Below are positions 1,791-35,324 of a stretch of 35,486 nt of DNA, piece after piece. Positions within the stretch are counted from its first letter, which is position 1. Each line of letters begins with the position of its first letter. A program made the translations under genes and the position numbers. The DNA is from an uncultured Candidatus Saccharibacteria bacterium (GTDB lineage: Bacteria; Patescibacteriota; Minisyncoccia; Phycocordibacterales; JAKFXT01), in NCBI GenBank assembly GCA_964357075.1, contig CAYHJR010000001.1:1-35486 (forward strand), in the 5' to 3' direction. The notes under the pieces were generated by a model that made no database searches, had not been told where the DNA came from, and was given only the letters and a program-made list of their open reading frames with translations.

Positions 1791-1821
1791 AGCTTATAGC
1801 TGCTAGCTTCTAGCTTACAGG
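1791..1821. repeat. degenerate heptanucleotide array (AGCTNNN) x4
   Basis: agcttat agctgct agcttct agcttac agg, read directly. Lies just upstream of the membrane-protein ATG (1784). Confidence 0.85.
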
Positions 1822-1869
1822 AAAATCTCAAAAATCAGAAACCACTTATTCACCCTTCTGTTGTATCTG

Positions 1870-1897
1870 GCAGCTGAAAGCTGGTAGCTGGAAACTA
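1870..1897. repeat. degenerate heptanucleotide array (NNAGCTG) x4
   Basis: gcagctg aaagctg gtagctg gaaacta, read directly. Lies just downstream of the dnaJ stop (1903). Confidence 0.85.
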
Positions 1898-3022: not shown

Positions 3023-3075
3023 ATTTTAAATCATGATTTAGAAATCATTAAAACAAAACTATTGAATAATAAGCT

Positions 3076-3332
3076 AACAAAAAAACCGCCTCAAGCTGAG
3101 AGACGGCGAATAAATGGATAAGGTGACAGCCCCATTCCGCATCCAGATCGGTTCACCCAATTCTAGTAATGGGTTAATCTCGTACACCGGGGAGCGACCC
3201 CAGCATCGTATAATTCCGACGTCCTGGCCCAAGATGGGGGTGTCCTCCTTTGTCTTTGTTACTCTTCCAACTGTGGTTGTCTAGATGCCCCCCCAGAGAC
3301 TAAGGTAAAGGAAGACACAACCACATACTACT
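3076..3332 (-). ncRNA. unclassified structured RNA candidate in the dnaK-dnaJ spacer (about 255 nt)
   Basis: A GC-rich island in an AT-rich genome. It has its own promoter-like signal upstream and an intrinsic terminator downstream. Several strong helices are visible, e.g. GUGUCUUCCUUU/AAAGGAGGACAC, UGGUUGU/ACAACCA and CUGGGG-ucgcu-CCCCGG. No convincing ORF. Confidence 0.4.
3079..3106 (-). terminator. rho-independent terminator
   Basis: Minus strand: CCGUCUC-UCAGCUU-GAGGCGG (7-bp stem including one G-U pair) followed by UUUUUUU. Confidence 0.6.
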
Positions 3333-3381: not shown

Positions 3382-5319
3382 TTATTTCGTTTCGGCGTCG
3401 CGGATTGGCGGCTCTTCCCCGTTTTCTTTTTTATCTTCCATTTTTTCTTCCGTTGCTTGTTGTTTGTCGTTGGTGGCTGGTTGTTCGTTGTTCGTTGTTT
3501 GTTGTTGGTTCTGCTTATACATCATTTCACCAATTTTTGAGACCTCTCCAGAAAGGGCTTCCAATGCTTCTTTTAAGCCCGTCCCAGTTTCTTTGGCTTT
3601 TTTAAGTTCAGTGATTTTTGTTTCAATTCCAGTTTTAATATCGGCTGAAACCTTGTCCCCGGCATCTCGAACAGCTTTTTCGGCGGTGTGAATTAATTGG
3701 TCGGCTTGATTTCTCATTTCGGCTTCTTCTTTTTTCTTTCTGTCGTCCACTTCGTGTTCTTGCGCTTCTTTTTTCATTCGTTCAATTTCCGCATCGGTTA
3801 GACCCGAGCGCGCTTCTATGCGAATTGATTGTTCTTTGCCGGAGGCCTTATCTTTGGCTTTAACTTGCAATATGCCGTTCACGTCAACATCAAAGGTAAC
3901 TTCAATCTGCGGTAGCCCTCTCGGAGATGGTGGTATGCCGTCTAAAATAAATCTTCCTAAGCTTTTATTGTCAACTGCCATAGGACGTTCCCCTTGAGTG
4001 ATGTGAATTTCAACCGAGGTTTGATTGTCGGCCGCCGTAGAAAACACTTGCGACTTACTGGCCGGAATATGGGTGTTTTTTTCTATCAAATGAGTAGTAA
4101 CATTTCCCAATGTTTCTATGCCAAGCGAAAGCGGAATAACGTCAAGTAAGAGCACGTCTTTAACATCTCCCTGCAGTATTCCCGCCTGAATAGCGGCGCC
4201 AATCGCCACCACTTCATCCGGATTGATTGATTTGTTTGGTTCCTTATTAAATAAGTTTTTAACCGCCGCCTGTATGGCCGGCATTCTAGTTTGTCCGCCG
4301 ACCAGAATTACTTCATCTATTTCGGTAAATTGTATTTTTGATTCGGTAATGGCTCTTTTACTAATTTCTACGGAACGGTCAATAAATGGTTTGGCCAATT
4401 CCTCCAATTTTGAACGGCTTAATTTGAGTAACAGATGTTGCGGGCCTGAAGCGCCGGAGGTGATAAAAGGAATATTTATTTCTGTTTCAATCGTAGTCGA
4501 AAGTTCATGCTTGGCTTTTTCGGCCGCTTCATCCAATCTCTGCACCGCCAAGGGGTCGTTCATTATGTCTATACCGCTCTCTTTTTTAAATTCACCGGCA
4601 ATGTATTGCATCACAGTTCTGTCTATATCGCGTCCGCCCAAGTGAGAGTCGCCGTCAGTCGATTTTACTTCCAGTGTGTCATTGCCTTCGGCGTCATGTA
4701 TGACTTCCAAAATGGAAATATCAAAAGTTCCGCCACCAAAGTCAAAAACAGCTATTTTTTCATTTTTCTTTTTATTAAAACCATAGGCCAAGGCAGCCGC
4801 CGTCGGCTCGTTTATTATTCGCTTAACAGTCAAACCGGCAATCGCCCCGGCGTCTTTGGTGGCTTGCCGTTGCGCGTCGTTAAAGTAGGCCGGAACCGTA
4901 ATTATGGCTTCGGTTATTTTTTCTCCAAGCTTGGCCTCGGCATCATTTTTTAATTTTTGCAAAATGAAAGCCGAGATTTGTTCCGGTGTGTAATATTCGT
5001 CTCCGAGTTTTACTTTGACTCCTCCGTTATCACTTTTTTCTATTTTGTAAGAAGTATTTTTGGCGTCCTTTTGAACCGCTTCTTCACTAAAGGAGTGGCC
5101 GATAAAACGTTTGATGCCATAAACGGTATTTTGCGGGTTTGTAACCGCTTGGCGCTTGGCCAATTGTCCCACCAATCTTTCTCCGGTTTTGGAAATTGCC
5201 ACAATTGAGGGCGTGGTGCGCACTCCTTCGGCATTTTCAATAATGCGCGGCTCCCCGCCTTCAATTATGGCGAGGGCGGAATTCGTAGTTCCCAAATCTA
5301 TGCCTAATATTTTTGACAT
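3382..5319 (-). CDS. dnaK: molecular chaperone DnaK (Hsp70)
   Basis: [17 protein letters not shown] and [11 protein letters not shown] motifs; full-length Hsp70 with a low-complexity Q/T/N tail. Confidence 0.98.
3452..3514. repeat. heptanucleotide array (GTTGNTN) x9 inside the dnaK 3' end
   Basis: gttgctt gttgttt gtcgttg gtggctg gttgttc gttgttc gttgttt gttgttg gttctgc. That is 63 nt, or 21 codons, encoding roughly [21 protein letters not shown]. Confidence 0.8.
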
Positions 5320-5908: not shown

Positions 5909-6048
5909 ATAAAAGTGGCTTTTTCTTTGTTTTAATTCCTTAATTTCGGAGATAGGTTTGAAAGAACTTGCACAGCGCGACTGGCGCGAGCAGAGAAAAT
6001 TTTCAGCAGAAAATTATTCGTGTCTTTCAAACCCATCTTAAAAACATT

Positions 6049-6461: not shown

Positions 6462-6812
6462 TTATTCGGAAATTTCCAAGTTTTTAAGCATAAGAGAGCG
6501 ATGTTTTATTTTCGGAAGCATGCGGGAGACGGCGTGACGGATTAATTCTTCCGTTCCTTTTTTACCGCGCACGTTTTTGGCCGTACTTTTTGTCATTCCG
6601 CCGGGGTATCCGGAGTAGCGGGTATGAGTCATTTGTAAAAGTTTTTTATCGGTAATGGAAATTTTACCGGCGTTTATGATATTTACTTTAGCGCTCGGTA
6701 CGACATTTTTTCTGAAGGTCGGTTTATCTTTTCCACTAAGTAAAGTGGCGACTTTGCTTGCCAGGCGTCCCAATTTTTGTTCCGTTGCATCTATTGTGTG
6801 AGAGTTATTCAT
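6462..6812 (-). CDS. rplM: 50S ribosomal protein L13 (short form)
   Basis: IDATEQKLGRLASKVATLLSGKDKP...YSGYPGG...AVSRMLP; sits upstream of rpsI as usual. Confidence 0.9.
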   Translation of the reverse strand: MNNSHTIDATEQKLGRLASKVATLLSGKDKPTFRKNVVPSAKVNIINAGKISITDKKLLQMTHTRYSGYPGGMTKSTAKNVRGKKGTEELIRHAVSRMLPKIKHRSLMLKNLEISE

Positions 6813-6846
6813 GATTGATTTTTAAGGAATTGCATTCGTTATTTTT

Positions 6847-8233: not shown

Positions 8234-8845
8234 CTATCGACTATAAAATTCCAAGACGCCGGAAAGATCAAAATGAAGTTCTGGACGCGAATAATTTGGA
8301 ATTTGTTTTACTAAACCCTCGCCTTTTTTAATATCGAAAGTTACCCAGGAAGGCGCGGTATAATCTTTTAATCTTTCCTCAAGGGTTGCAAAAAGTACGC
8401 TTCCTTTGCTCCCCTCTCTTATTTTAATAATGTCGCCGACTTTAACTTCAGCCGAAGGAATGGTATTTTTGCGTCCGTTCAATAATATGTGGCCATGAGA
8501 AACCATTTGGCGCGAAGCTCTCCTGGTTGGAGCCAAGCCAAGGCGATAGACCACGTTATCCAATCTTTGCTCCAATGAGTGATAAAGATTTTCAATCGGC
8601 TTTGTTCCTTTGATTTTATTCGCCCTTATGACGTAATTTTTAAATTGTTTTTCCATAATGCCGTAGGTGTAGCGGACTTTTTGTTTTTCCAAAAATTGCC
8701 GGCCGTATTCGCTTCTGACACCTCTTCGTTTTTTGCTGTTTTGTTCGCTTCTTGATTGGGACAGGGCAAATTTTTGCGTCTGACATTTTTCAAACACGGC
8801 GGCGCCCAATCTTTTTCCTATTTTATATTTTGGTCCTACTTTCAT
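8234..8845 (-). CDS. rpsD: 30S ribosomal protein S4
   Basis: YGRQFLEKQKVRYTYG...RLDNVVYRLGLA.TRRASRQMVSHGHILLNG (S4 domain). Confidence 0.95.
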   Translation of the reverse strand: MKVGPKYKIGKRLGAAVFEKCQTQKFALSQSRSEQNSKKRRGVRSEYGRQFLEKQKVRYTYGIMEKQFKNYVIRANKIKGTKPIENLYHSLEQRLDNVVYRLGLAPTRRASRQMVSHGHILLNGRKNTIPSAEVKVGDIIKIREGSKGSVLFATLEERLKDYTAPSWVTFDIKKGEGLVKQIPNYSRPELHFDLSGVLEFYSR

Positions 8846-8892
8846 GATACGAATGGTTACGAATTTAAACGAATGATACGAATTATGACTAA
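8846..8892. repeat. ACGAAT-rich leader element, copy 1 (fills the whole rpsK-rpsD spacer)
   Basis: Coding strand: ATTCGTATCATTCGTTTAAATTCGTAACCATTCGTATC followed directly by the rpsD ATG. Confidence 0.85.
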
Positions 8893-9718: not shown

Positions 9719-9832
9719 TTATCCTTGTCTTTGTTTATGTCTTGGGTTTTCGCAAATAACGCTGATTCGACCTTTGCGTCGAATCATTTTGCACTTAGCG
9801 CAAATTTTTTTGACAGAAGCTCTTATTTTCAT
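9719..9832 (-). CDS. rpmJ: 50S ribosomal protein L36
   Basis: Below the ORF-track size cutoff. My own translation is [37 protein letters not shown], with ATG at 9832..9830 and TAA at 9721..9719. Confidence 0.9.
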
Positions 9833-9883
9833 GATACTAATGGTTACGAATGAATGCCCCGGCGGTAGCCGAATGATACGAAT
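9833..9883. repeat. ACGAAT-rich leader element, copy 2 (with a 16-nt GC-rich insert)
   Basis: Coding strand: ATTCGTATCATTCG-GCTACCGCCGGGGCAT-TCATTCGTAACCATTAGTATC followed directly by the rpmJ ATG. Confidence 0.85.
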
Positions 9884-13032: not shown

Positions 13033-13067
13033 AAAGCTTTCGGCTTTCAGCTTCCAGGTGTTAGTTT
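13033..13067. repeat. degenerate heptanucleotide array
   Basis: aaagctt tcggctt tcagctt ccaggtg ttagttt, just downstream of the alaS stop (13075). Confidence 0.7.
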
Positions 13068-13074
13068 CTTAAAT

Positions 13075-14865
13075 CTAGCTCAATGTTCCTTTGATACGGC
13101 GGATACCGGCGGAGATGGCTTCTTCTTTTTGAATTTTAAAAATGGCTTTCCGAACGTTTCCGTCAGGCCCCACTACACTTCCAAGGTCGGAAGTGTTATG
13201 GACATGCGGTCCGCCGCAGAATTCCAAACTAAAGTCCCCAATTTTATAAACCCGAACCTTATCACCGTATTTTTCTTCAAAAAGACCGATAGCGCCAAGT
13301 TTTTCCGCCTTCTCAATCGGCAAATCTTCAAAGGTGACCGGCATGGCTTCATCAATTTTTTGATTTACCAAATCTTCCACTTTTTTCTTTTCTTCATCAG
13401 TCATTTTACGGTCAAATGAAAAATCAAAACGAAGACGCTCCGGGGTAATATTACTGCCCTTTTGAGACACTTTTTCTCCCAGGGTCTGCTTTAGGGCTTT
13501 GTGCAGAAGATGAGTAGCGGTGTGATATTTAACAGACATGTCGCTTGCATCAGCCAATCCCCCCTTGAATTTCTTTTCCGCTCCGACTCTGGACAGCTCC
13601 TGGTGTTTCTTCATTTCCTCTTTGAATCCCGCCTCATCCACTTCTTTTCCCTCCTCTTTGGCCAACTCTTTGGTCATTTCAATTGGAAAACCGAAAGTGG
13701 AAAAAAGTATAAAGGCCTCATGACCGGTAATTTTTCCGGTAGAAAGTTTTTTGAATTCGCGCAAACCGTCGGTAAGTGTTTTTCTAAAACGATTTTCTTC
13801 TTCGGTGATTTCTTTTTTGATTTCAGAAACTTTTTCCTTCAAGTTCGGATAAACGTCTTGATATTTTTCAATCACGACTCCCGAAAGAAGAGCCAAATCA
13901 CCTTCTCTCATTTTCAATTTATCGCCGGAAAATATTGCCCGGCGTAAAAGACGGCGCAGAATATATCCTTGGTCGGTATTAGACGGGGTGACGCCGTCGG
14001 CAATCAAAAACACGGAAGTTCGTATATGGTCAGCTACTATGCGTTTTGCTTTAATATCGTGCTCGATGGAAAAATCATCAATTTTCCGCATTATCGGCTC
14101 AAACAAATCCGTTTGGAAAATATTGTCTTTTCTTTGCATCAGCATGGCCAAGCGTTCGAGTCCAGCGCCGGTATCAACGTTTTGCTGTGTAAGTTTTCCG
14201 ATTACTTTCCCGTCTTTCTTTTGAAATTCCATGAAGACGTCATTCCAGAACTCTACGATTTTTTGACCATCCGTTGCTTTAAGAAAATTTTCTTTAGAAA
14301 GCTCGCCCAGTCCCTTTTCCGTAAGGTCATAAAACATTTCCGTATCGGACCCGCAGGGCCCGTTGTTTCCCGGGCTCCACCAATTATCTTTAACACCCAA
14401 AAAATATATTCTTTCTTTTGGTATGCCCAAGGACTCCCAGACCTCAGCCGACTTTTCATCCTTGGGCGCGTTTTCATCACCTTCAAAACAGGTTATATAG
14501 AGGCGTTTTGGGTCAAGGCCGAGTCCCTCTTCTTTTGAGGTAATAAATTGATAGCTCCAGGTTATGGCTTCGTCTTTAAAATATGAGCCGAGCGACCAAT
14601 TGCCAAGCATTTCAAAAAAAGTGACGTGGGTGTTGTCCCCGACTTCTTCTATGTCTTGTGTCCGGACGCATTTCTGGACGTTCACCAGCTTGTCCCCCTC
14701 CGGGTGAGGTGTTCCCATTAAATAGGGAATCAAAGGTTGCATGCCGGCTGTCGTAAAAAGGACAGACGGGTCATTTTCCGGAACAAGCGAAGCGGAAGGT
14801 AAAATGGCGTGTCCGCGGGACTTAAAAAAAGATAAGAAGCGCCGGCGAATTTCTTCAGATTTCAT
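13075..14865 (-). CDS. alaS: alanine--tRNA ligase, short form (catalytic, tRNA-binding and editing domains; no C-Ala domain)
   Basis: RFLSFFKSRGH...FTTAGMQP at the N-terminus. Editing-domain motifs HTATHLLHKAL and CGGPHV. The protein ends about 30 aa after the editing domain: 596 aa, versus about 870 in typical bacteria. Confidence 0.95.
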   Translation of the reverse strand: MKSEEIRRRFLSFFKSRGHAILPSASLVPENDPSVLFTTAGMQPLIPYLMGTPHPEGDKLVNVQKCVRTQDIEEVGDNTHVTFFEMLGNWSLGSYFKDEAITWSYQFITSKEEGLGLDPKRLYITCFEGDENAPKDEKSAEVWESLGIPKERIYFLGVKDNWWSPGNNGPCGSDTEMFYDLTEKGLGELSKENFLKATDGQKIVEFWNDVFMEFQKKDGKVIGKLTQQNVDTGAGLERLAMLMQRKDNIFQTDLFEPIMRKIDDFSIEHDIKAKRIVADHIRTSVFLIADGVTPSNTDQGYILRRLLRRAIFSGDKLKMREGDLALLSGVVIEKYQDVYPNLKEKVSEIKKEITEEENRFRKTLTDGLREFKKLSTGKITGHEAFILFSTFGFPIEMTKELAKEEGKEVDEAGFKEEMKKHQELSRVGAEKKFKGGLADASDMSVKYHTATHLLHKALKQTLGEKVSQKGSNITPERLRFDFSFDRKMTDEEKKKVEDLVNQKIDEAMPVTFEDLPIEKAEKLGAIGLFEEKYGDKVRVYKIGDFSLEFCGGPHVHNTSDLGSVVGPDGNVRKAIFKIQKEEAISAGIRRIKGTLS

Positions 14866-14903
14866 AATACGAATAGTTACGAATTAAATCGAATGATACG
14901 AAT
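14866..14903. repeat. ACGAAT-rich leader element, copy 3
   Basis: Coding strand: ATTCGTATCATTCGATTTAATTCGTAACTATTCGTATT followed directly by the alaS ATG. The element also supplies the last codons and the TAA of the MGMT gene. Confidence 0.85.
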
Positions 14904-17284: not shown

Positions 17285-17323
17285 AAAATTTTATACGTCC
17301 TTGGATTTCCCAGATTTTCTCTG

Positions 17324-17358
17324 CAACTACCGACTACAAACTAGTGACTACCCACTAT
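17324..17358. repeat. 35-nt heptamer array (NNACTAN) x5; on the coding strand this is UAG every 7 nt
   Basis: Coding strand: aTAGtgg gTAGtca cTAGttt gTAGtcg gTAGttg. The first TAG is the mnmA stop codon. Homologous to 28545-28579. Confidence 0.9.
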
Positions 17359-18491
17359 TTAATTATTCCACCCCCCAAGCAAATTTCCCCATTATAAAAA
17401 ACAACAGATTGCCCCGGCGAAACCAGAATTGATTTTTTGAAGGTAACAATGTTTTTTAGGACTCTATTCCCCAAGGCTAAGCCTTGGTAGCTACCAAGGC
17501 TTAGCCTTGGGGGGTTTGAGCTAACGGTGCAAAGGTGTTCTTCTCCATGATAACGAATCTGTGCTTTAATTTTCCGATCTTTAAATTCCTCCTCTATCCA
17601 ACTAATCTTTTCTAATTCGTAAGTCGCTTGCCCGCCTAAATTTTTACTCCGTGAAAATTTAGGCGGGTGAAGAACGTGAGAAACAACGATTTCATTTTTT
17701 GAAACATTTTTTTTGACGACATAATACGGTTTATCATTGGGGGTTTTTTTGTTGACTGTAAAGCCGTGCCGTTCGCCAATCGTATGAAACAGAGCCCCTC
17801 TGTGCGTGCCTATGATTTCTCCTTTTTCGTTTAAAATTTTCCCTTTTTTCTCCGACATAAAATGTTTTAGGAATTGCTTCATATCAACATTGGATATAAA
17901 GCAAAGTCCTTGGCTGTCTTTTTTCTCTGCCGTAGCAAGTTTGGCTTTTCTCGCAATCTCTCTTACGGCTTCTTTTTTCAGATGACCAACTGGGAACAAA
18001 ATATGTCTCAATTGTTTCTGTGTTAATGTCCAAAGGAAGTATGTTTGATCTTTTCCTTCATCGTCTCCTCTTAAAAGCTGGGCGCTGGAAGCTGGGCGCT
18101 GGAAGCTGATTTTCGCATAGTGCCCGGTAGCCACGTAATCGGCGCCATTTTTTAAAGCCCATTTTAAGAAGGCGCCGAATTTAACGTGCTTATTGCAAAA
18201 AACATCCGGGTTTGGCGTTCTGCCAGCTTTATACTCCGAAATCATATAATCAATAACTTCCTTTTTATATTCCTTTTCCAAATCAAGCGTTATAAAAGGA
18301 ATGCTAAGGTGAGCCGCGACCTTCATGGCGTCCAACCTGTCTTCTCTCCAAGTGCAAGGTATAAACTCGGGTTGCCAGACCTTTATAAAAACACCCGTGA
18401 CATTGTATCCGGCTTTTTTGAGTAGATATGCCGACACTGAAGAGTCCACTCCCCCGGATAGGCCAACAAAAACTTTTTTTCTCTCGCTCAT
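17355..18491 (-). CDS. mnmA: tRNA 2-thiouridine(34) synthase MnmA
   Basis: PP-loop VFVGLSGGVDSSV, and a C-terminal SPGQSVVFYNGEICLGGGII. I start at the MSERKK ATG (18491), because the track's extra 16 codons run into a hairpin. Confidence 0.93.
   Translation of the reverse strand: MSERKKVFVGLSGGVDSSVSAYLLKKAGYNVTGVFIKVWQPEFIPCTWREDRLDAMKVAAHLSIPFITLDLEKEYKKEVIDYMISEYKAGRTPNPDVFCNKHVKFGAFLKWALKNGADYVATGHYAKISFQRPASSAQLLRGDDEGKDQTYFLWTLTQKQLRHILFPVGHLKKEAVREIARKAKLATAEKKDSQGLCFISNVDMKQFLKHFMSEKKGKILNEKGEIIGTHRGALFHTIGERHGFTVNKKTPNDKPYYVVKKNVSKNEIVVSHVLHPPKFSRSKNLGGQATYELEKISWIEEEFKDRKIKAQIRYHGEEHLCTVSSNPPRLSLGSYQGLALGNRVLKNIVTFKKSILVSPGQSVVFYNGEICLGGGIIK
17469..17512. repeat. 44-nt perfect palindrome inside the mnmA coding sequence
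   Basis: CCCCAAGGCTAAGCCTTGGTAG / CTACCAAGGCTTAGCCTTGGGG. Encodes roughly PRLSLGSYQGLALG. Confidence 0.95.
18075..18109. repeat. heptamer array (aagctgg gcgctgg) x2.5 inside mnmA
   Basis: aagctgg gcgctgg aagctgg gcgctgg aagctga. Encodes SFQRPASSAQL. Confidence 0.9.
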
Positions 18492-22147: not shown

Positions 22148-25093
22148 TTAATTTTTTACCACAAAATTAATAATCTTACCCTTGACATACACGACCTTTT
22201 CGAACCCGCCCAAAATCCACTTTCCAATTATCGGGTCGGATTTTGAAAGTGAAATAACTTTTTCTTCCAAAGCGTCATTGTCAACCTCTATCATACCGCG
22301 GGTCTTGCCATTAACCGAGACCGGCAAATAGATATTTTTCTTTATCAGTTTTTTCCTATCATGTTTCGGCCATGGCGTAAGATGAACGTTTTTTTTATTA
22401 CCAAGATTATGCCAAATTTCTTCCGTCAGATGAGGAGCAAAAGGTGAGAGCAATTTCAAAAATATTTCAAAATCCTTTCTTGAAACAGAGTTGGATTTTT
22501 CAAATTCGTTGGAAAGTATCATCAGAGAGCTAACTGCCGTATTCATTTTAAGCTCTTCAATATCCTCCCCCACTTTCTTAATCGTCTTATGCATTAAGGA
22601 ATCCAGTTCTTTACTTGTTGGTTGTTGGTTGTTGGTTGTGAGTTTTTCCTGAAGCTTCCACACCCTTTCTATAAAACGACGACACCCGACCATGCTATCT
22701 GTATTCCAAGCAATCGCTTGCTCAAACGGTCCCATAAACATTTCATATAATCTCAAGGTGTCAGCTCCAACTTTCTCAATAATGGTGTCCGGGTTTATGA
22801 CATTGCCTTTAGATTTACTCATCTTTACTCCCCCTTCGGCTAGGATTAATCCGTGGGAAGTTCTTTTCTTGTAAGGTTCTGATGTGGGTACCAGTTTTAA
22901 ATCGTAAAGAAACTTGTGCCAAAATCTTGAATACAAAAGGTGAAGCGTGGTGTGTTCCATTCCGCCGTTATACCAATCCACCCCGTTAGAGGTGGGCTCA
23001 CGCTGCGGGCCCTCGCGACCTCTAACGGGGCGAGCCGTCAGCCAATATTTTAGGTTTTTTTGCGAGGCAAACTCCTTTTTATTTTTAGGGTCAGTGTAGC
23101 GAAGATAATACCAGCTTGAGCCGGCCCAATTTGGCATCACGTCTGTTTCGCGTCTGCCTTTGCCTTTGCATTTTGGGCATTTGACGTTTACCCATGAAGA
23201 GATATTCGCCAAAGGCGATTCGCCGGTATTTGTCGGTTTATAGTTTCTAACTTTTGGAAGCAATACCGGTAATTGCTTTTCCGGCACCGGCACAAAGCCG
23301 CATTTCTCGCAATGTATTATAGGTATCGGTTCACCCCAGTAGCGCTGCCGCGAGAAAACCCAGTCACGCAGTTTAAAAGTTGTTGTTTTTTTACCCCTCA
23401 CAAACTTGGTGATTGCCCACTTGGCTTTTTCACTATCCATTCCGTTAAATTTTCCGGAATTAACAACGACTCCTTCCCCCGTATAACAAAAACTTTCCTT
23501 GTCCCAGCGTGAGAGCCAAATATCCAACTCCGCATGAACAATTTTTGGGTATGCAATCTCATTTTTAGAGAACCAAACAATTTCATAACTTTCCTTTTCT
23601 TCCTGACTTCTTTCTTCTTGGGCTTCATCAATAAGCTCAAACATTACGGCGTTAGTGAAAGATATTCTATTTTCGTCTTTATGCGCCGCATAATATTCCG
23701 CTCTGGCAACACCCCCCATTACTTTTACCAACTTTAAATTGGTGTATCCAGTTTCTTCTCTGGCTTCTCTTCTTGCCGCTTCAACCAAATCCTCCCCCTC
23801 ATGAACCCCGCCCATGGGAAAAGTAGTCCAAGGCTGTTTTTTCCACTTTAAACATAAAATCTTGCCGTCCCGAGGATTTCTGATAATTGCGTGCACATTC
23901 CTTCTTTCTACAATTTTTTTACCTTTGCGTGGTGGGTTGTATATATCTATTCTATTCGGAATTACAACTTCTCTTATCGGCAAATTAAATCTTTTAGCAA
24001 ATTCAAAATCCCTATCATCATGCGCCGGCACCGCCATAATAGCGCCGGTGCCATAATGTCCGAGAACATAGTCCGCGACATATATAGGAATTTCTTCTCC
24101 GTTTGCCGGGTTAATTGCCATCAAACCATCGAGCTTTACTCCCGTTTTTTCTCTGCTTGCGTCCGTTCTCTCCTTCTCATTAATTCTAGAAGCAAATTCA
24201 AGGTACATCTTAACCTCAAGAGAATTTTTTACTTTATCTTTGTGGGTTTTTATTAATTCATGCTCCGGCGCTACCACTAAATAAGTGGCGCCGAAGAGAG
24301 TGTCGGGCCTCGTGGTAAAAACTGAAATAGCTTCCAACTGTCGGCTTTTAGCTTTTAACTTTTCTTCACCCTGAAAGCTGGAACCTGAAAGCTGAAAGCT
24401 GACTAATGCTCCTTCGCTTCTGCCTATCCAATTTCTCTGCTGTGTCACAACTTGCGGTATATAATCAACCAAATCTAAATCTTTATGAAGACGGTCGGCA
24501 TATTTGGTAATAGCCAGCATCCATTGTTCTTTATCGCGCTTTTCGGTTGGCCCATCACAACGCTCACATTTTCCATCTACAACCTCTTCATTGGCCAAAC
24601 CAATTTTACAATTCAGACACCAATTAATCGGCACCTTGGCTTTGTAAGCCAATCCTTTTTTGAAAAGCTGTAAAAAAATCCATTGTGTCCATTTATAATA
24701 TCTCGGGTCAGTAGTATTAATTTCACGCGACCAATCAAAGGAAAAACCAATTTGTTTCAATTGTCTTCTAAAAGTGTCTGTATTTTGTTTGGTAACAATT
24801 TCTGGGTGAATTCCGGTCTTGATTGCATAATTTTCAGTCGGCAATCCAAAAGCGTCCCACCCGATTGGATAAAGCACGTTATACCCTTCGGAACGGCGCT
24901 TCCTCGCAATTATGTCCATGGCCGTGTTACTCCTAATGTGGCCAACGTGGAGTCCATCGCCTGATGGATAAGGGAACTCTATAAGACCGTAAAATTTTTT
25001 CTTTTTAGAAGGAAATTGAGCATTGTCTATCTTTTGCTTACCCCAAATCTTCTGCCACTTCTTCTCAATCTTTTTATGGTCGTACTGATGCAT
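22148..25093 (-). CDS. leuS: leucine--tRNA ligase carrying an inserted Nudix domain and repeat-derived insertions
   Basis: HIGH (GLHVGHIRS), KMSKS (VKMSKSKGN), CP1 editing motifs (TTRPDTLFGATYLVVAPEH, GTGAIMAVPAHDDRDFEFA), and RDWVFSRQRYWGEPIP. The start is taken at MHQYDHKKIEKKWQ (25093). Confidence 0.95.
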   Translation of the reverse strand: MHQYDHKKIEKKWQKIWGKQKIDNAQFPSKKKKFYGLIEFPYPSGDGLHVGHIRSNTAMDIIARKRRSEGYNVLYPIGWDAFGLPTENYAIKTGIHPEIVTKQNTDTFRRQLKQIGFSFDWSREINTTDPRYYKWTQWIFLQLFKKGLAYKAKVPINWCLNCKIGLANEEVVDGKCERCDGPTEKRDKEQWMLAITKYADRLHKDLDLVDYIPQVVTQQRNWIGRSEGALVSFQLSGSSFQGEEKLKAKSRQLEAISVFTTRPDTLFGATYLVVAPEHELIKTHKDKVKNSLEVKMYLEFASRINEKERTDASREKTGVKLDGLMAINPANGEEIPIYVADYVLGHYGTGAIMAVPAHDDRDFEFAKRFNLPIREVVIPNRIDIYNPPRKGKKIVERRNVHAIIRNPRDGKILCLKWKKQPWTTFPMGGVHEGEDLVEAARREAREETGYTNLKLVKVMGGVARAEYYAAHKDENRISFTNAVMFELIDEAQEERSQEEKESYEIVWFSKNEIAYPKIVHAELDIWLSRWDKESFCYTGEGVVVNSGKFNGMDSEKAKWAITKFVRGKKTTTFKLRDWVFSRQRYWGEPIPIIHCEKCGFVPVPEKQLPVLLPKVRNYKPTNTGESPLANISSWVNVKCPKCKGKGRRETDVMPNWAGSSWYYLRYTDPKNKKEFASQKNLKYWLTARPVRGREGPQREPTSNGVDWYNGGMEHTTLHLLYSRFWHKFLYDLKLVPTSEPYKKRTSHGLILAEGGVKMSKSKGNVINPDTIIEKVGADTLRLYEMFMGPFEQAIAWNTDSMVGCRRFIERVWKLQEKLTTNNQQPTSKELDSLMHKTIKKVGEDIEELKMNTAVSSLMILSNEFEKSNSVSRKDFEIFLKLLSPFAPHLTEEIWHNLGNKKNVHLTPWPKHDRKKLIKKNIYLPVSVNGKTRGMIEVDNDALEEKVISLSKSDPIIGKWILGGFEKVVYVKGKIINFVVKN
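22614..22641. repeat. heptamer array (GTTGTTG) x4 inside leuS
   Basis: cttgttg gttgttg gttgttg gttgtga. Encodes TTNNQQPTS. Same word family as the dnaK tail array. Confidence 0.85.
22981..23030. repeat. GC-rich hairpin element in frame inside leuS
   Basis: CCCCGTTAGAGGT, 24 nt, ACCTCTAACGGGG (13-bp perfect arms). Encodes part of TARPVRGREGPQREPTSNG. Confidence 0.9.
24324..24400. repeat. eleven-unit heptamer array inside the leuS CP1 region
   Basis: gaaatag cttccaa ctgtcgg cttttag cttttaa cttttct tcaccct gaaagct ggaacct gaaagct gaaagct. Confidence 0.85.
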
Positions 25094-25122
25094 TAGAGAA
25101 ATATACCTTATAGAAAGATAAG

Positions 25123-25152
25123 TTGACAATATTTTATAATTTCTGATATAAA
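25123..25152 (+). promoter_or_regulatory. candidate plus-strand promoter diverging from leuS
   Basis: TTGACA (25123-25128), 17-18 nt, then ATATAA/TATAAA (25146-25152). Confidence 0.35.
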
Positions 25153-25289: not shown

Positions 25290-25380
25290 AACTTCCTTTT
25301 GAGTTGCCTTGCACAGCCCGACTGGGGCGAGCAGAACAATTCGCCAGCAGGTGAATATGTGTGCAAATCAAAAGGAAGTT
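25290..25380. repeat. 91-nt extended imperfect hairpin
   Basis: 13-bp perfect outer arms AACTTCCTTTTGA / TCAAAAGGAAGTT, a 7-bp inner stem TTGCACA / TGTGCAA, and an apical GGCGA / TCGCC. Confidence 0.8.
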
Positions 25381-25453
25381 AAAGAAATATTGATTTAATT
25401 TAAATTTTAAATTCTATCTACCCCTCGCATTGCTCGGAATCTCAGATTTAAAA

Positions 25454-27989: not shown

Positions 27990-28214
27990 TCACTTCATCA
28001 TTTGCTGAATTTCCGCTTGATGTTCTTGCATTACGGCTAATGCGGCGCTTTCCTGTCCCTCACCCCTCTTCACTCTCTCCTCAATTTTTTTGGCAATCGT
28101 TCCAAAAAAATCTGGATTTTTCTGGACTAAATCCAGGATTTTATCTTGCTCCACCTGCGGCAAACTTTTAAGCTTGCTCTTCAAAAGGGAACGAAACAAA
28201 AAATTCTGTAACAT
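27990..28214 (-). CDS. hypothetical small helical protein
   Basis: A 74-aa ORF that is charged and helical-looking, with no motif. Its position after atpC is the only support. Confidence 0.35.
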   Translation of the reverse strand: MLQNFLFRSLLKSKLKSLPQVEQDKILDLVQKNPDFFGTIAKKIEERVKRGEGQESAALAVMQEHQAEIQQMMK

Positions 28215-28287
28215 AAGTTACATTTTATCAAAAAAAGAAAAAACTTGTAACGGTTATCAACAGCCCGACATTTTGAACAAAAAATAT

Positions 28288-28521
28288 TCAAACAAGAATA
28301 AGGACTTCTTCCAGTGAAACTTTTATAACCCCTTTCTCTATTTTAAAATTAGAAACGTTTTCGTTATTTTTTACCACAATGACCCCCTCCTTTAAAGCGC
28401 TGACAAGCGGCATATGCTTCGGCAAAATCGTCATCTCTCCTTCGCTTCCGGGAAGCGTGACAGAAGACGCTTCTCCGTGGAAAAGAACTTCTTCAACATT
28501 GGCAATAGTTAGATTTATCAT
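28288..28521 (-). CDS. atpC: F1 ATP synthase subunit epsilon, short form (beta-sandwich only)
   Basis: INLTIANVEEVLFHGEASSVTLPGSEGEMTILPKHMPLVSAL. The ATG at 28521 is preferred over the track's GTG at 28548. The C-terminal helical hairpin is absent. Confidence 0.8.
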   Translation of the reverse strand: MINLTIANVEEVLFHGEASSVTLPGSEGEMTILPKHMPLVSALKEGVIVVKNNENVSNFKIEKGVIKVSLEEVLILV

Positions 28522-28544
28522 TGTTTGAAATTTTGTTATTTTCT

Positions 28545-29988
<1,444 letters not shown>

Positions 29989-30067
29989 ATTAATAAATTA
30001 GATCGAATAGCACAAACACTATTTTATTCGTTGAATTTGTGGTCATTCGTAGATTCGTACTTAACGG

Positions 30068-30994
30068 CTATTTCAGCACTTCAATACCGCTCACAATTTC
30101 CGACATCTCTCTCGTGATAATGCCTTGCCTTTCCTTGTTATAGTCCCGAGTCAAATTTTTTACTACATCGCGAGCCTTGTCTCCGGCGCTTTTCATCGCC
30201 ACCATTCTGGCCGAATGTTCCGAGGCCTTTGATTCCAAAGCCGCGTAAAAAATTATAGTTTCGGCCAGAAATTCCAATAAATTATCCAAAACGGTTTCCG
30301 CGTCCGGCTCATAGGTGTAAGCGACTTTTTTTTCTTTTGGTCCGCGATAAAAAAGGGAGGCATATTTGCCCTTGCGCGGCCGTACGCTTAAAAGCACCTC
30401 CTCAATCTCTTTCGGGACTAAAGGGAAAATTTGGTGAGAGGTTGCTTCCTGGGCAAAAGTAGAAATAAAATTGCTATAAACAATATAAACCTTGTCAAAT
30501 CGTCCTTCCCGAAAATTCTTTTCCGCTTCGTGTCTTAGGTGGACAACGTCGAAAAGCGAAATCTTGTCATCAAACGATTTTTGAGAAAAAATTGTTTCAT
30601 ATTTGCGGCGCGCCACAAATTCGGTTGCCTTGCGGCCGATAGTGATAAATGAGGCTTTGCCTTCCAACTTTTTCTCTTTAATTAGGCGCGACAAAAGCCG
30701 AAGTACGGCGCTGTTTAAACTTCCGGCCAGTCCTCTGTCGCTGGTTATAACTATAAAAAGCGCTCTTTTTATGTCGCTGCCATTTTTTTCTCCAATCAAT
30801 GGATGCTTTGTAAATTCGTGCTGGGAAATAATGCGCTTTAAAATTTTGAAGGCGGAAAAAGCATAAGGTCTTGCCGAAAGCGCCCATTCCTGGGCCTTGC
30901 GCATTTTGGCGGCCGAAACCGCTTCCATGGCTTTTGTGACCTGTTCGGTTTTTTTGACAGCCCGTATTTTTGCTTTGACTTGTTTTAATGACAT
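30068..30994 (-). CDS. atpG: F1 ATP synthase subunit gamma
   Basis: MSLKQVKAKIRAVKKTEQVTKAMEAVSAAKMRKAQ, and a C-terminal ERQGIITREMSEIVSG. Confidence 0.93.
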   Translation of the reverse strand: MSLKQVKAKIRAVKKTEQVTKAMEAVSAAKMRKAQEWALSARPYAFSAFKILKRIISQHEFTKHPLIGEKNGSDIKRALFIVITSDRGLAGSLNSAVLRLLSRLIKEKKLEGKASFITIGRKATEFVARRKYETIFSQKSFDDKISLFDVVHLRHEAEKNFREGRFDKVYIVYSNFISTFAQEATSHQIFPLVPKEIEEVLLSVRPRKGKYASLFYRGPKEKKVAYTYEPDAETVLDNLLEFLAETIIFYAALESKASEHSARMVAMKSAGDKARDVVKNLTRDYNKERQGIITREMSEIVSGIEVLK

Positions 30995-31002
30995 ATTGGG
31001 TA

Positions 31003-31037
31003 GAGTTATGAGTTAAGAGTTATGAGTTACGATTTAA
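31003..31037. repeat. heptamer array (GAGTTAN) x5; on the coding strand this is UAA every 7 nt
   Basis: Coding strand: tTAAatc gTAActc aTAActc tTAActc aTAActc. The first TAA is the atpA stop. The array ends 8 nt before the atpG ATG. Confidence 0.9.
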
Positions 31038-32575
31038 GAAAAGAAGGTGAATAGAGTAGATTTTAATTTTTCTTCCGTTTCGGATGTGAGATCGCGAGTT
31101 TGGCGAATTGAATTCAAAACTTCTCTCCCTTTCGTCTCAAGATGCAATTGCAAATTTTTTTCGGTTTCTTTCACCTTTTCAATCGGTGTCTCATCGAAAT
31201 AACCGTTCACTCCGGCGTAAATCACGGCGACTTCGATCTCAAATGGCAAAGGTTCCAGTTTGTATTGAGTCAAGAGTTCGGATAAACGGCGCCCTTTATC
31301 AATCCGCTCTTTGGTCTCCTGGTCCAAATCTTGCGAGAATTGCATAAAGGCCTCCAATTCGCGGAACTGCGCCAATTCCAAACGAATTTTGGCTGCCACC
31401 TTTTTCATGGCTTTGGTTTGAGCGGCGCTACCGACGCGGGTCACGGAAATTCCGACATTAATGGCCGGTTTCATTCCTTTATTGAACAAATCCATATCAA
31501 GATAAATCTGTCCATCGGTAATTGAAATAACATTCGTCGGAATATAAGCCGAAACATCTCCCTCTTGCGTTTCAATAATTGGAAGTGCCGTCAAGGACCC
31601 TCCGCCTTTTTCTTTGGAAAGTTTGGCGGCTCGCTCCAAAAGGCGCGAGTGCAAATAAAACACATCTCCCGGATACGCCTCGCGCCCCGGCGGGCGTCTC
31701 AAAATTAAAGCCAATTGGCGATAAGCCACGGCCTGTTTTGACAAATCATCGTAAACAACAAGCGCGTCTTTCCCTTTCTCCATAAAATATTCACCGAGTG
31801 CGGCTCCCGCGTACGGCGCCAAAAACTGAAGCGCCGAGGGCGCGCTGGCCCCGGCGGAAATCACTATAGTGTATGAAAGGGCCCCCTTTTCTTCCAATTC
31901 TTTTACCAAACGAGCGGTTTTTGATTCTTTTTGACCTATCGCCACATAAATGCAAATCGGGCGATTACTCTCTTCCTCGTTTTTTTGATTAATTATGGCG
32001 TCAATCGTTAAAGCCGTTTTGCCGGACCCGCGGTCGCCAATTATTAATTCCCTTTGACCGCGTCCAATCGGCACCATGCCATCAATCGCTTTGAGTCCTG
32101 TGTGTAGCGGAGTGTTAACCCCTTGGCGGTCAATCACGCCATAGGCCTCTCTTTCTATTGGGTACACCGCGCTTTCCTTAATGGCGCCCTTTCCGTCCAA
32201 AGGTTCCCCCAAAGGGTCAATTACTCTTCCCAAAAATCCTTCGCCAACCGGAATAGAGAGCACTTTATGCATTCTTTCCACTTTCATCCCCTCTTTGACA
32301 CGACTGGTATCTCCCAAGATGATTACGCGGACACTTCCTTCTTCCAAGTTCAAAACCATGCCGTAAAGCGAACTTTTATTTTGCAAAGTTTCCTTCAATG
32401 ATTTTTCATCGTTTTCCAAAAACATTATCATTTCCGACATAATGGCGTTGTTCAAACCTTCAATTTCCGCCACGCCATCACCAACGGTTAAAACCACGCC
32501 GGTTTCTGATTCTTTGGCGCTCGGCGTGAATTTTTCGATTCTCTGTATTATTTTTTCAATCAGTTTTTCATCCAT
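31034..32575 (-). CDS. atpA: F1 ATP synthase subunit alpha
   Basis: Walker A GDRGSGKT, plus AYPGDVFYLHSRLLERA. Confidence 0.98.
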   Translation of the reverse strand: MDEKLIEKIIQRIEKFTPSAKESETGVVLTVGDGVAEIEGLNNAIMSEMIMFLENDEKSLKETLQNKSSLYGMVLNLEEGSVRVIILGDTSRVKEGMKVERMHKVLSIPVGEGFLGRVIDPLGEPLDGKGAIKESAVYPIEREAYGVIDRQGVNTPLHTGLKAIDGMVPIGRGQRELIIGDRGSGKTALTIDAIINQKNEEESNRPICIYVAIGQKESKTARLVKELEEKGALSYTIVISAGASAPSALQFLAPYAGAALGEYFMEKGKDALVVYDDLSKQAVAYRQLALILRRPPGREAYPGDVFYLHSRLLERAAKLSKEKGGGSLTALPIIETQEGDVSAYIPTNVISITDGQIYLDMDLFNKGMKPAINVGISVTRVGSAAQTKAMKKVAAKIRLELAQFRELEAFMQFSQDLDQETKERIDKGRRLSELLTQYKLEPLPFEIEVAVIYAGVNGYFDETPIEKVKETEKNLQLHLETKGREVLNSIRQTRDLTSETEEKLKSTLFTFFS

Positions 32576-32586
32576 CCCGTTAAAAA

Positions 32587-32967
32587 TTATGGTTTGATAA
32601 CATGATAAAGTTCCAGCAATTGATTTTTATGCGTCTTGTCCACTCTTTTTTCTGTTGTGTCTATTCTATATCCGCTTATTAAATTTTCATCGATTTTATA
32701 TAAAATATTTCTTCCGCTTATAAAAGTGCCATAATTTGATTCAATATTTGATTTTATTTTTTGTGATAATTCTTTGCCACTTATGACGACCGCATTGTTA
32801 TACCCCTTGATTCTTAATGATTTTAAATCGGATATGATTTTTTTCCAGATTTTTCTCTCGCCTCGCTTTTCAAAGTAACTATTGAGATTTAAAACAAAAG
32901 ATTCTAGAGATTTCTCCGATTCCCCCGCCTTTTTTATTAGAATTTCAACGATTTGCTTTGTGGTCAT
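32587..32967 (-). CDS. atpH: F1 ATP synthase subunit delta (OSCP), short form
   Basis: Sits between atpF and atpA. The C-terminal ...KIDENLISGYRIDTTEKRVDKTHKNQLLEL matches the delta C-terminal pattern. Only 126 aa. Confidence 0.7.
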   Translation of the reverse strand: MTTKQIVEILIKKAGESEKSLESFVLNLNSYFEKRGERKIWKKIISDLKSLRIKGYNNAVVISGKELSQKIKSNIESNYGTFISGRNILYKIDENLISGYRIDTTEKRVDKTHKNQLLELYHVIKP

Positions 32968-32975
32968 ATACGCGC

Positions 32976-33422
32976 TTAATGTTTTTCTCGCAATATTTTT
33001 TCTGCCGCCAGAGTTGCCATTCGCGCAATCGATTCTTTTGACCTCAAAATAGCTTCCTCTTCCAGACGCTTGCCAAGTTCCACAGCTTCCTTCAGCAATT
33101 TCTCTTTTTCCTTTTCCGCGTCCATTAGTGCTCTTTCTTTCATTTTAATCGCCTCCGTTTTTGAAGAAGACAAGAATTCCCGGGCTTCTGCTTTGGCCTT
33201 ATCATGTATTTCTTTACCGTCAATCTCCGCTTTTTCCAAACTTTCTTTGGCGGACCTTGCGTCTTCTACTCCTTTTTCCATCAAACCCTTTCTCTCATCT
33301 ATAATTTTTAAAAGCGGCTTGTAAAGAAAACGTTGCAAAACAAAAAGCAAAATGCAGAAGTTTATTATCTGCACCAAAAGGAGCTTCCATTCAATGCCAA
33401 ATACTGATGAGATCTCTTGCAT
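32976..33422 (-). CDS. atpF: Fo ATP synthase subunit b
   Basis: One N-terminal TM helix, then a long charged coiled coil. Operon position supports the call. Confidence 0.85.
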   Translation of the reverse strand: MQEISSVFGIEWKLLLVQIINFCILLFVLQRFLYKPLLKIIDERKGLMEKGVEDARSAKESLEKAEIDGKEIHDKAKAEAREFLSSSKTEAIKMKERALMDAEKEKEKLLKEAVELGKRLEEEAILRSKESIARMATLAAEKILREKH

Positions 33423-33462
33423 GATTGATTTTTAAGGAGTGCTAACGACTATAAAAATCATC

Positions 33463-33540
33463 ACCCCTCACTTGCTATATTTTTATTATTTATTACTAAA
33501 ATACATTTAGGTGATTTATTGCTACTGGCAAGTGAGGGGT
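33463..33540. repeat. 13-bp perfect inverted repeat pair ACCCCTCACTTGC / GCAAGTGAGGGGT with a 52-nt AT-rich spacer
   Basis: Read directly. Lies in the unusually long (241 nt) atpE-atpF spacer. The arms are related to those at 35325-35419. Confidence 0.9.
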
Positions 33541-33663
33541 TAAGTAAATTATAGTCCCGAGCACCTTTTTTCATTAAATCCTTTATTTCATCCAATTCTT
33601 TTTGTATTGGTTATATTAATCAACGAAGACCCTTACATGACAAGGTGCTTGGTCCTTAATTTA

Positions 33664-33938
<275 letters not shown>

Positions 33939-33960: not shown

Positions 33961-33999
33961 CTGTCCTGAAAGCTGGCAGCTAGAACCTGTAAGCTGTCC
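33961..33999. repeat. heptamer array (NNARSCT) x5
   Basis: ctgtcct gaaagct ggcagct agaacct gtaagct gtcc. It abuts the atpB stop (33999-34001). Confidence 0.85.
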
Positions 34000-35126: not shown

Positions 35127-35324
35127 AAAAATTTTTAAAATTGGACATACAGACATGATGAAAGGGGGGCGGGAAGAAAGAAAATAAAGTGGAAAAGCAG
35201 AGATGTCTGTGGGATTTGAAACAAAGGTATTTTTGAGATATCCTTCCCTAAAAGCTAATAGCATCCACCAGAGGACGGATCAGTCCTTTGGCTGGGAAAG
35301 CTAGAAGCTTATTATGCGCCAATA

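Follow-up and report, generated by a model that had tools for sequence, protein, structure and literature searches.

Heterocystous cyanobacteria carry the STRR sequences, tandem repeats of 7-nt units: CCCCAGT in STRR1, TTGGTCA in STRR2 and CAACAGT in STRR3. Here we describe heptanucleotide arrays in contig CAYHJR010000001.1 of an uncultured Candidatus Saccharibacteria bacterium, a complete NCBI contig of 35,486 nt with 41.8% G+C that was analysed at its full length and is called the window below. Like STRR, the window arrays are intergenic tandem heptamers that use few preferred words per genome. They differ from STRR in being much shorter and less uniform, and many of them abut stop or start codons.

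A first, sequence-only reading of the window had taken STRR for the only precedent; heptamers among long simple sequence repeats (LSSR) and repeats of TAACTGA, GGGAATC and GGGGAYT precede it as well (PMC4679880, PMC4692102). As a 2007 survey is quoted in these two papers, heptamers are an over-represented unit of LSSR in many prokaryotes, and polymerase slippage has been hypothesized as their source. Insofar as the survey is reported there, its LSSR and the window arrays have in common the over-represented heptamers, the intergenic bias, the words proper to each genome and the proposed slippage origin. LSSR are, however, long and near-perfect. An array of the window has no more than 3-6 units, its lag-7 identity of 0.5-0.85 marks it as degenerate, and several families coexist in one genome.

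The TAACTGA repeats of marine Beggiatoaceae lie a few nucleotides before start codons, and their genome has few Shine-Dalgarno (SD) sequences (MacGregor 2015, PMC4679880). The window resembles that system in the copy number of 2-6, the stop-containing heptamer, the proximity to start codons and the SD-poor genome; TAACTGA is also found in ribosomal-protein operons and occasionally within open reading frames (ORFs). In contrast to this one fixed word, the window has several degenerate families, many of its arrays take their phase from the stop codon upstream and, by comparison with relatives, they are recent expansions of gene junctions. GGGAATC in Xanthomonas and GGGGAYT in Nostoc occur in inverted pairs and turn over rapidly among close relatives (Rehm et al. 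2015, PMC4692102). They share with the window the intergenic heptamer arrays, some stem-loop-capable inverted pairs, and the variation of length and sequence between close relatives. These words are G-rich and form G-quadruplexes, unlike those of the window, which are based on AGCT, TAG or TAA and have no G-runs. None of the described words (TAACTGA, STRR1-3, GGGAATC, GGGGAYT) stands in tandem in the window, and TAACTGA has 0 copies there. The relatives of its AtpD and AtpG place the window in Patescibacteria, class Paceibacteria (Parcubacteria; candidate phyla radiation, CPR), with an AtpG identity to the nearest genomes of only 72-78%. The literature searched contained no description of arrays like these for Patescibacteria.

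Altogether, the window arrays are a short, degenerate, stop- and start-anchored form of the known prokaryotic heptanucleotide repeats, documented here across a class of the CPR, and the data require no new kind of system. On balance we favour the view that they are short degenerate microsatellites of the STRR/LSSR type, which probably arose by slippage at tight gene junctions and were filtered by the reading frame. The long, near-perfect arrays of LSSR and STRR have a single counterpart in the window, the perfect one at 22615-22639, so that the window represents a degenerate short-array variant. Its arrays have 3-6 units, with a lag-7 identity in spacers of 0.50-0.84; they are listed in Table 1.

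The period-7 signal is specific and stands well above the expectation. The autocorrelation of the intergenic sequence of the window peaks at lag 7 (z=4.5) and at lag 14 (z=2.9), and an overall lag-7 excess is absent from its coding sequence. With a lag-match detector, 5 period-7 arrays were found in the strictly intergenic segments; 100 shuffles that preserve dinucleotides predict 0.06 and never gave more than 2. The other periods from 4 to 15 give 0-1 arrays each in the same segments, except for 3 at the harmonic 14. An exact 4-mer core in at least 4 consecutive units is found 5 times at period 7, and at periods 5, 6 and 8-12 never. For AGCT, 8 recurrences fall at lag 7 and none at the remaining lags between 4 and 15, lag 14 being outside the count. 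Both the reading in 7-nt register and Tandem Repeats Finder (TRF) show units arranged head to tail; of the 32 TRF rows for the window, 12 have period 7 and 3 have period 14. The arrays amount to ~308 nt, or ~10% of the 3.2 kb of intergenic DNA, and occur in 7 of the 27 spacers of at least 15 nt. Within the sequence available, the sequence-only reading is thus borne out in its central point, the period-7 excess of intergenic DNA over shuffles and coding sequence, and its arrays read in 7-nt register as it described them, those at 25394-25421 and 35291-35311 being weak and short, respectively.

We compared the window with 80 Paceibacteria species loci (atpD +/-10 kb, 1.33 Mb in total). Related loci bear L-numbers (L023, L056 etc.); L082-L086 are the closest relatives and L081 is an independent ENA assembly. 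The intergenic sequence of the 80 loci contains 79 period-7 arrays where 4.9 +/- 1.9 are expected, 50 arrays at period 14 and at most 28 at any other period. Exact-core runs number 35 between genes and 10 within genes at period 7, and at most 8 at any other period. The excess is therefore a property of the whole lineage. A preference for non-coding DNA is clear as well: 93 of 146 arrays lie within the ~9% of the sequence that is intergenic.

Chance, low-complexity composition or an assembly artefact could be suspected from the shortness of the individual arrays, two of which (25394-25421 and 35291-35311) are insignificant taken singly. This explanation is refuted by the shuffle statistics, by their specificity for period 7 and by the negative control, 50 kb of E. 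coli including its atp operon, which yielded a single period-7 array and no period-7 core run. The pattern recurs in 80 other genomes, and sequencing reads are longer than the arrays. Moreover, the array at 31002-31036 is unchanged in L081, a contig of low coverage in the metagenome of Hainich H41 groundwater that is 99.4% identical to the window over 1610 nt and stems from the same population; the sequence-only reading had named absence from independent assemblies as a ground for rejecting the arrays. Practically no credence is left to chance or artefact.

Orthologous junctions of the atp operon reveal how young the arrays are likely to be. In the window, the spacers measure 39 nt at atpA-atpG, 130 nt at atpG-atpD and 27-54 nt at atpD-atpC, between coding flanks that are conserved and alignable; the real start of atpC is probably the ATG at 28521, which gives a spacer of ~54 nt. 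At these three junctions L083, L084 and L085 mostly have 2-6 nt, and so has L086 at atpG-atpD. The exceptions are L084 at atpG-atpD (13 nt), L086 at atpA-atpG (30 nt) and L082 at atpG-atpD (57 nt) and atpD-atpC (66 nt). The atpA-atpG junction is 3-5 nt long in L082, L083 and L084, and atpD-atpC takes 2 nt in L083 and L084; examples from the relatives are TAA-AAT-ATG and TAA-AA-ATG, respectively. The atpD-atpC spacer of L082 has an array of its own with different words, CCTACAA TTTACAA CTTACAA CCAACAA. At atpB-atpE, the relatives share with the window a AAGGTCGATTATTA motif that is flanked by two arrays in the window only: the array at 33961..33998 is absent from the spacers of L082 and L083, and in L083 AAGGTCGATTATTA directly follows the stop codon. 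The array elements of the window have no match in the 86 related loci. Because the atp junctions of the closest relatives are mostly 2-6 nt long and free of arrays, the arrays are, judged by this comparison, derived, lineage-specific and dispensable for operon function. Such gain and loss, together with the homogenisation seen in leuS, is the rapid turnover of heptanucleotide microsatellites.

The sequence-only reading had presented the arrays as a filling of intergenic spacers. Many spacers are indeed so filled, but arrays are also found within genes. In leuS, the arrays at 24344..24402 coincide with an in-frame insertion of 14 amino acids (42 nt = 6x7) relative to the closest orthologues. 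A second leuS array encodes a variable linker of the leucyl-tRNA synthetase, LeuRS. Its sequence is (ACAACCA)3+ACAAGTA in the window; the L082 counterpart, whose codon positions are identical, is (ACAAGTN)4-5. The orthologous array has evolved concertedly, with homogenisation to different words in the two genomes. The genic arrays examined sit in the frame-preserving insertion and in variable linkers. Genic arrays of period 7 are as numerous as those of period 6 and far more numerous than those of periods 5, 8, 10 and 11.

LeuRS itself (leuS 22148-25129) has further peculiarities. A NUDIX domain, common to L082 and L083, is inserted after the editing domain, and a second, window-specific insertion of 18 residues, LTARPVRGREGPQREPTS, has no recorded heptamer signal. 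The inserted regions noted are residues 409-529 and 698-715.

The words of the arrays are specific to each genome. Within genomes, 5.1% of comparisons between arrays share a heptamer at 7/7, versus 0.7% between genomes (7x). Hardly any AGCT arrays are found outside the window; other genomes have arrays of CTAG and AATT. In the view of the sequence-only reading, the core differs from locus to locus. This holds insofar as the 35 kb contain at least four unrelated families, CAGCTTY, TARTNNN, TAACTCN and GTTAANN. It does not hold for CAGCTTY, which has 20 overlapping pattern hits against 0.23 expected and is present at 6 loci of the window: after dnaJ, before ORF 1311-1784, after alaS, after atpB, inside mnmA and inside leuS. 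Nor does it hold for the arrays after mnmA and after atpD, which are copies of one ~47-nt element with ~77% identity. This identity extends over the 'variable' positions and the sequence past the array, and the two arrays are not independent.

The alternation of conserved core and variable positions, as first described, has mostly another origin. Pooled over arrays, identity is 0.75 at lag 14 versus 0.70 at lag 7. That the lag-14 identity is at least as high as that at lag 7 shows that two-unit blocks of 14 nt have been duplicated recently, and this gives the arrays the A-B-A-B look of a core with variable positions. What remains of the original description is a small excess of invariant columns.

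A triplet core at fixed short spacing is characteristic of the RNA sites of HutP, (UAG-N4)n, and TRAP, (G/UAG-N2-3)n, which lie in single leaders and are served by a dedicated protein. The (TAR-N4)5 arrays of the window resemble the UAG-N4 spacing of HutP sites, and in fact share it exactly. Conceivably, the arrays are bound by a single-strand nucleic-acid-binding protein with a 7-nt register (cold-shock-domain, S1 or HutP-like on (UAG-N4)n) that would regulate translation or termination. A period of exactly 7, the position next to start and stop codons and the slight excess of invariant columns would suit such a protein, and Csp, S1 and CsrA have been proposed for the TAACTGA repeats (PMC4679880). 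Spacing of the (UAG-N4)n type is present in three window arrays, and most arrays have other cores. The window arrays are many, with unrelated cores, and stand after stop codons within operons, unlike the HutP and TRAP sites. It is unlikely that one sequence-specific protein binds them all, since the 35 kb contain at least four word families that are unrelated. Related genomes each use other words, one member of the CAGCTTY family is reversed in orientation, arrays occur within coding sequence, and the orthologous junctions of close relatives lack them. We therefore hold binding sites of this kind to be very unlikely.

Copying between loci raises the question of mobile elements. REP/BIME sequences and Rickettsia palindromic elements (RPE) are genome-specific short repeats that follow stop codons and adopt inverted arrangements; RPE also insert in frame within genes, which the leuS and mnmA arrays recall. 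Small non-autonomous copy-paste elements of the REP/BIME, MITE or RPE kind could settle at gene boundaries and occasionally in frame in genes, the heptamer periodicity being internal to them. The near-copies dispersed in fixed register after mnmA and atpD, the identical 31-nt arrays at two sites of L072, the genome-specific word families and the arrangement in inverted pairs are all what one would expect of them. Multiple copies with defined ends and a stable palindrome are nevertheless missing in the window: its TAGT element has 2 copies only, its copies form no stable palindrome, and neither terminal inverted repeats nor target-site duplications were recognised. Among the window proteins scanned against Pfam, neither a transposase nor a RAYT-like protein was seen. 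Tandem 7-nt units inside the element and local 14-nt duplications are foreign to REP and RPE. Unit number and word differ in most arrays, for which local duplication (14-nt perfect blocks) accounts; the arrays of the leuS linker occupy orthologous positions and were homogenised locally; and, as said above, no element of the window recurs in the related loci. An origin of the arrays as mobile elements is, in our opinion, distinctly improbable.

The preferred explanation, slippage at tight junctions, can be laid out as follows. In the ancestral state, the genes would have abutted, with 2-6 nt from stop to start. Local tandem duplication of 7-nt and 14-nt blocks, by replication slippage or unequal exchange, would then have expanded the junctions; the preference for 7 nt is taken as an empirical property of many bacteria. 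A neutral tandem duplication at such a junction can include only the stop codon and a few spacer bases, and this limit would produce both the (TARNNNN)n stop register and the location of arrays at gene ends. Stop codons would in this way seed nearly neutral arrays. Within genes, only frame-preserving amounts in tolerant loops would survive, as is shown in leuS by its linker and its 42-nt insertion. After an expansion, the units would diverge through point substitution and be partially re-homogenised by further slippage, giving A-B-A-B patterns; turnover by the same duplication process would be fast. Some arrays would also have been copied between loci. An active repeat-generating process was one of the options left by the sequence-only reading, and it is the one favoured by the 2-6 nt junctions of the relatives, the leuS insertion, the 14-nt re-duplications and the homogenised orthologous array.

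Several observations weigh against slippage as the whole story. Per kb, co-directional spacers contain 3 times as many arrays as divergent or convergent spacers do. In co-directional spacers of at least 90 nt, 37 of 50 arrays lie at most 10 nt from a gene end versus 11.3 expected, a placement whose start-proximal share may be inflated by the longest-ORF start rule of the gene calls. Where a spacer contains two arrays, these are mutually reverse-complementary (at least 6/7) in 13 of 18 cases, and the orientation of same-spacer arrays favours the reverse complement by 14 to 2; simple slippage does not predict this pairing. In the relatives, spacers with two arrays form long and sometimes perfect hairpins (mean z about -4.3), as in L056, L041, L051, L023 and L063. 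The same words recur within one genome, which requires a copy mechanism or a shared constraint, and two ~47-nt elements occupy separate stop codons in an identical register. Palindromic tetranucleotide cores are enriched (15/39 versus 4.1 expected), mainly AATT, and further CTAG, AGCT and TTAA. Invariant columns amount to 2.89 versus 2.48 under a random-substitution model, an excess that is small but significant, and the test is conservative, as the score-based detector skips the most degenerate arrays. No length polymorphism was seen at the arrays, L081 being identical to the window. Lastly, slippage leaves the reason for 7 nt unexplained. The reverse-complement pairs with their perfect stems, the recurring words, the two same-register elements and the palindromic cores argue that slippage alone is insufficient. 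They leave room for REP/MITE-like copying, for inverted copies made by template switching, or for selection on stop-to-start RNA hairpins. Strong selection on the cores was rejected: the excess of invariant columns is small and, taken one by one, just 2 of 70 arrays reach significance.

Selection on such hairpins leads to a functional alternative, in which the arrays are intercistronic RNA modules. A 5' arm that begins with the stop codon would pair with a 3' arm that reaches the start codon, giving a periodically interrupted hairpin that couples or insulates the translation of neighbouring cistrons, or stabilises mRNA segments, where SD sequences are lacking; stop-phased units would close all frames. 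The anchoring of arrays at stop and start codons, also within the atp operon, the reverse complementarity of same-spacer pairs, and the two-array spacers with their low mean z and their perfect 20-30 bp stop-to-start stems in L023, L056 and L063 are in line with this. Three window arrays (1791-1821, 33897-33938 and 31002-31036) end 5-8 nt before an ATG in an SD-poor genome: SD-like tetramers (GGAG, GAGG, AGGA) at -20 to -4 are found in 6 of 42 window genes against 13.6% at random positions. With SD-like motifs at background frequency, the organism seems to use no SD pairing, a setting comparable to that of the TAACTGA repeats. Stop-phasing is specific to period 7: among 1272 gene ends, 8 (3 belonging to the window) have stops at +7, +14 and +21 after the stop codon, and the equivalent is found at no more than 1 gene end for each other period from 4 to 12.

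The same hypothesis meets serious objections. The array spacers of the window fold no better than shuffles (z=+0.23, +1.09 and -0.92), and array-free spacers of the related genomes show just as much structure (mean z -3.0). In the nearest relatives, this operon works with junctions of 2-6 nt, and the same heptamers occur within coding sequence. On the sense strand, all three frames are closed by 54% of post-stop and 71% of pre-start arrays; on the antisense strand, by 21% and 58%, respectively, with a similar number of stops per unit on both strands. Closure of all frames thus concerns about half of the arrays, with a modest bias for sense over antisense stops, and any period not divisible by 3 would serve it equally well. 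We regard RNA modules of this kind as possible but doubtful.

A stable RNA structure in the array spacers of the window is ruled out by their fold z-scores, although paired arrays in relatives do fold. The idea that the arrays generally serve to place stops in every frame was rejected, too: no more than about half of them do so, and a period of 4, 5 or 8 would be just as good. Rfam covariance models matched only tRNA-Ala in the window, at the gathering threshold as well as at E<=0.1, and left the arrays unmatched. The arrays contain no promoter or terminator consensus on the minus (sense) strand, the sole overlap being with a plus-strand promoter-like site at 35288-35315, and none of those in 28000-35486 is overlapped by a terminator-like site (G+C-rich hairpin and T-run). 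As a separate observation, co-directional spacers of 50-200 nt in the 80 loci are generally structured, with or without an array (mean z about -3, 59% below -2); many contain classic hairpin-plus-T-run terminators, and others long A/T-rich hairpins from stop to start.

A stronger form of the functional reading can be imagined. In Patescibacteria lacking SD sequences, period-7 arrays would be selected intercistronic RNA elements, (UAR-N4)n with complementary arms that bridge stop to start, and would set coupling, insulation or the stability of mRNA segments. Their register would correspond to the footprint of the ribosome or of an OB-fold/cold-shock-domain protein, and slippage would merely generate and tune them. 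We find this rather unlikely.

Some other sequences of the window also adjoin start codons. The 19-nt leader ATTCGTAACYATTMGTATY abuts, in the same register, the ATG of four unrelated genes (rpsD, rpmJ, alaS and atpD), and could be a translation leader or regulatory site in an SD-less genome; ATTCGTAACC-type leaders likewise belong to the leader sequences of this genome. Upstream of rpmJ and atpD ~50 nt are held in common, with a longer element at 9862-9883 and 29967-29988; the spacers bearing leader sequence are 8846-8892 and 29938-30067. The word ATTCGTA occurs 17 times versus 4.65 expected, at a spacing of 9-10 nt and not 7. Three ACGAAT words (reverse complement) lie near the stop codon in the atpG-atpD spacer, and L069 has similar TACGAAT/ATTCGTA hairpin arms at 3701-3801. 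The 15-nt leader CCTTAAAAATCAATC, a dispersed start-adjacent sequence, is identical directly before the ATG of ORF 6462-6812 and of atpF.

Three longer elements are of a different nature. The motif CTGCTCG-NNN-CAGTC-NNNN-TGTGCAAG stands upstream of leuS and grpE, and in the orthologous spacer of L082 on the leuS side of ychF-leuS. A 4-bp stem around its CAGTC loop displays compensatory changes (GCGC/GCGC, GCCC/GGGC, GTGC/GCAC), which makes it a candidate structured regulatory element, without Rfam match. In the 402-nt dnaK-dnaJ spacer, a G+C-rich stretch folds with -94.4 kcal/mol (z=-2.9 versus shuffles) and finishes with a terminal hairpin and T-run (GCCGTCTCTCAGCTTGAGGCGGTTTTTTT). It is a candidate non-coding RNA of ~250 nt, with no Rfam match even at E<=0.1. 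Finally, a conserved element of ~140 nt (…ATGGATCCCGTAGTAGAAAATGGCATTAGAG…GAGCGATGCCATTTTTCACTAC.GG ATG) precedes atpA in L082, L083 and L084, and also atpF in L083. It is absent from the window, where the atpH-atpA spacer has only 11 nt.

Almost all genes of the window lie on the minus strand. The atp operon (atpB-E-F-H-A-G-D-C) occupies the highest coordinates and is followed downwards by the genes of a flavodoxin-like protein and HicA, ychF, leuS, the gene of a sigma-70-r4 protein, yceG and mnmA. Next come the genes of an Mrr-like nuclease, MgtC, a PD-(D/E)XK nuclease and MGMT, then alaS, then infA-rpmJ-rpsM-rpsK-rpsD-rpoA-rplQ, and last grpE-dnaK-dnaJ.

Table 1. Coordinates of the heptanucleotide arrays between and within genes, and of other elements; positions are those of the window unless a related locus is named.
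Position	Strand	Units or sequence	Context and remarks
31002..31036	minus	TAAATCG TAACTCA TAACTCT TAACTCA TAACTCT	Stop-phased, atpA stop codon in first unit; fills the atpA-atpG spacer; forward GAGTTAN in 4/5 units; 31002-31029 is a 14-nt x2 block, 100% identical (TRF)
28544..28578	minus	TAGTTTG TAATCAC TAGTTGG TAATGAG TAGTGGA	Stop-phased, begins with atpD stop codon; forward ACTA/ATTA in alternation; identity 0.76 at lag 14 vs 0.50 at lag 7
17323..17357	minus	TAGTGGG TAGTCAC TAGTTTG TAGTCGG TAGTTGC	Stop-phased, begins with mnmA stop codon; forward NNACTAN in 5/5 units
1867..1897	minus	TAGTTTC CAGCTAC CAGCTTT CAGCTGC CAG	CAGCTTY family, 5 nt past dnaJ stop; 1870-1897 forward NNAGCTG in 3/4 units; reverse-complement partner of 1791-1821 (6/7)
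1791..1821	minus	(CC)TGTAAGC TAGAAGC TAGCAGC TATAAGC T	Pre-start, AGCT core; ends 6 nt before ATG of ORF 1311-1784; forward AGCTNNN x4
33961..33998	minus	GACAGCT TACAGGT TCTAGCT GCCAGCT TTCAGGA CAG	Degenerate CAGCTTY member, directly after atpB stop codon; forward ARSCT core weak
33897..33938	minus	GTTAAGC GTTAATT GTTAAAA GTTAATT GTTTTAA	Pre-start, ends 5 nt before atpE ATG; forward NNTTAAC in 4/6 units; identity 0.75 at lag 14 vs 0.60 at lag 7
13033..13067	plus	AAGCTTT CGGCTTT CAGCTTC CAGGTGT	CAGCTTY family, shortly past alaS stop codon; orientation opposite to other members; NNNGCTT in 3/5 units
35291..35311		3-unit AGCT array	Between ORF 35013-35264 and tRNA-Ala; overlapped by the promoter-like consensus; too short for significance alone
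25394..25421	minus	AT-rich; ~2 clean copies of TTTAAAT, 2.1 by TRF	Not counted significant
24344..24402	minus	TCAGCTT TCAGCTT TCAGGTT CCAGCTT TCAGGGT GAAGAAA AGTTAAA AGCTAAA	Within leuS
22615..22639	minus	(ACAACCA)x3.6, perfect	Within leuS, coding for the variable LeuRS linker
18075..18108	minus	CAGCTTC CAGCGCC CAGCTTC CAGCGCC CAGCTT	Within mnmA, coding for ISFQRPASSAQL; 14-nt unit repeated at 100% identity (TRF)
3451..3510	minus	(AACNAAC)n, period 7/21	Coding for the Q/N/T-rich C-terminal tail of DnaK
8843-8864, 9830-9851, 14863-14884, 29935-29956	minus	ATTCGTAACYATTMGTATY	19-nt leader
6810-6827, 33420-33437	minus	CCTTAAAAATCAATC	15-nt leader
25308-25334, 5967-5993; L082 7368-7394	minus (window)	CTGCTCG...TGTGCAAG	Candidate structured element
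3060-3330	minus		Candidate non-coding RNA, dnaK-dnaJ spacer
L082 2256-2393; L083 8316-8455 and 7316-7483; L084 749-888			Conserved ~140-nt element

CPR genomes are thought to be streamlined, yet about one tenth of the scarce non-coding DNA of the window comes from a period-7 repeat process, and the same process adds residues to essential enzymes such as LeuRS. The heptamer bias of prokaryotic microsatellites, itself unexplained, is hereby extended to a large uncultivated radiation. Arrays of this kind may mislead the calling of start codons and motif searches based on spacers. With their tight and alignable junctions, the 80 loci constitute a comparative system for asking why the unit is 7 nt long and what its expansion does to operon translation without SD sequences. 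Should the functional reading, the less likely one, hold true, a new type of intercistronic signal would come to light.

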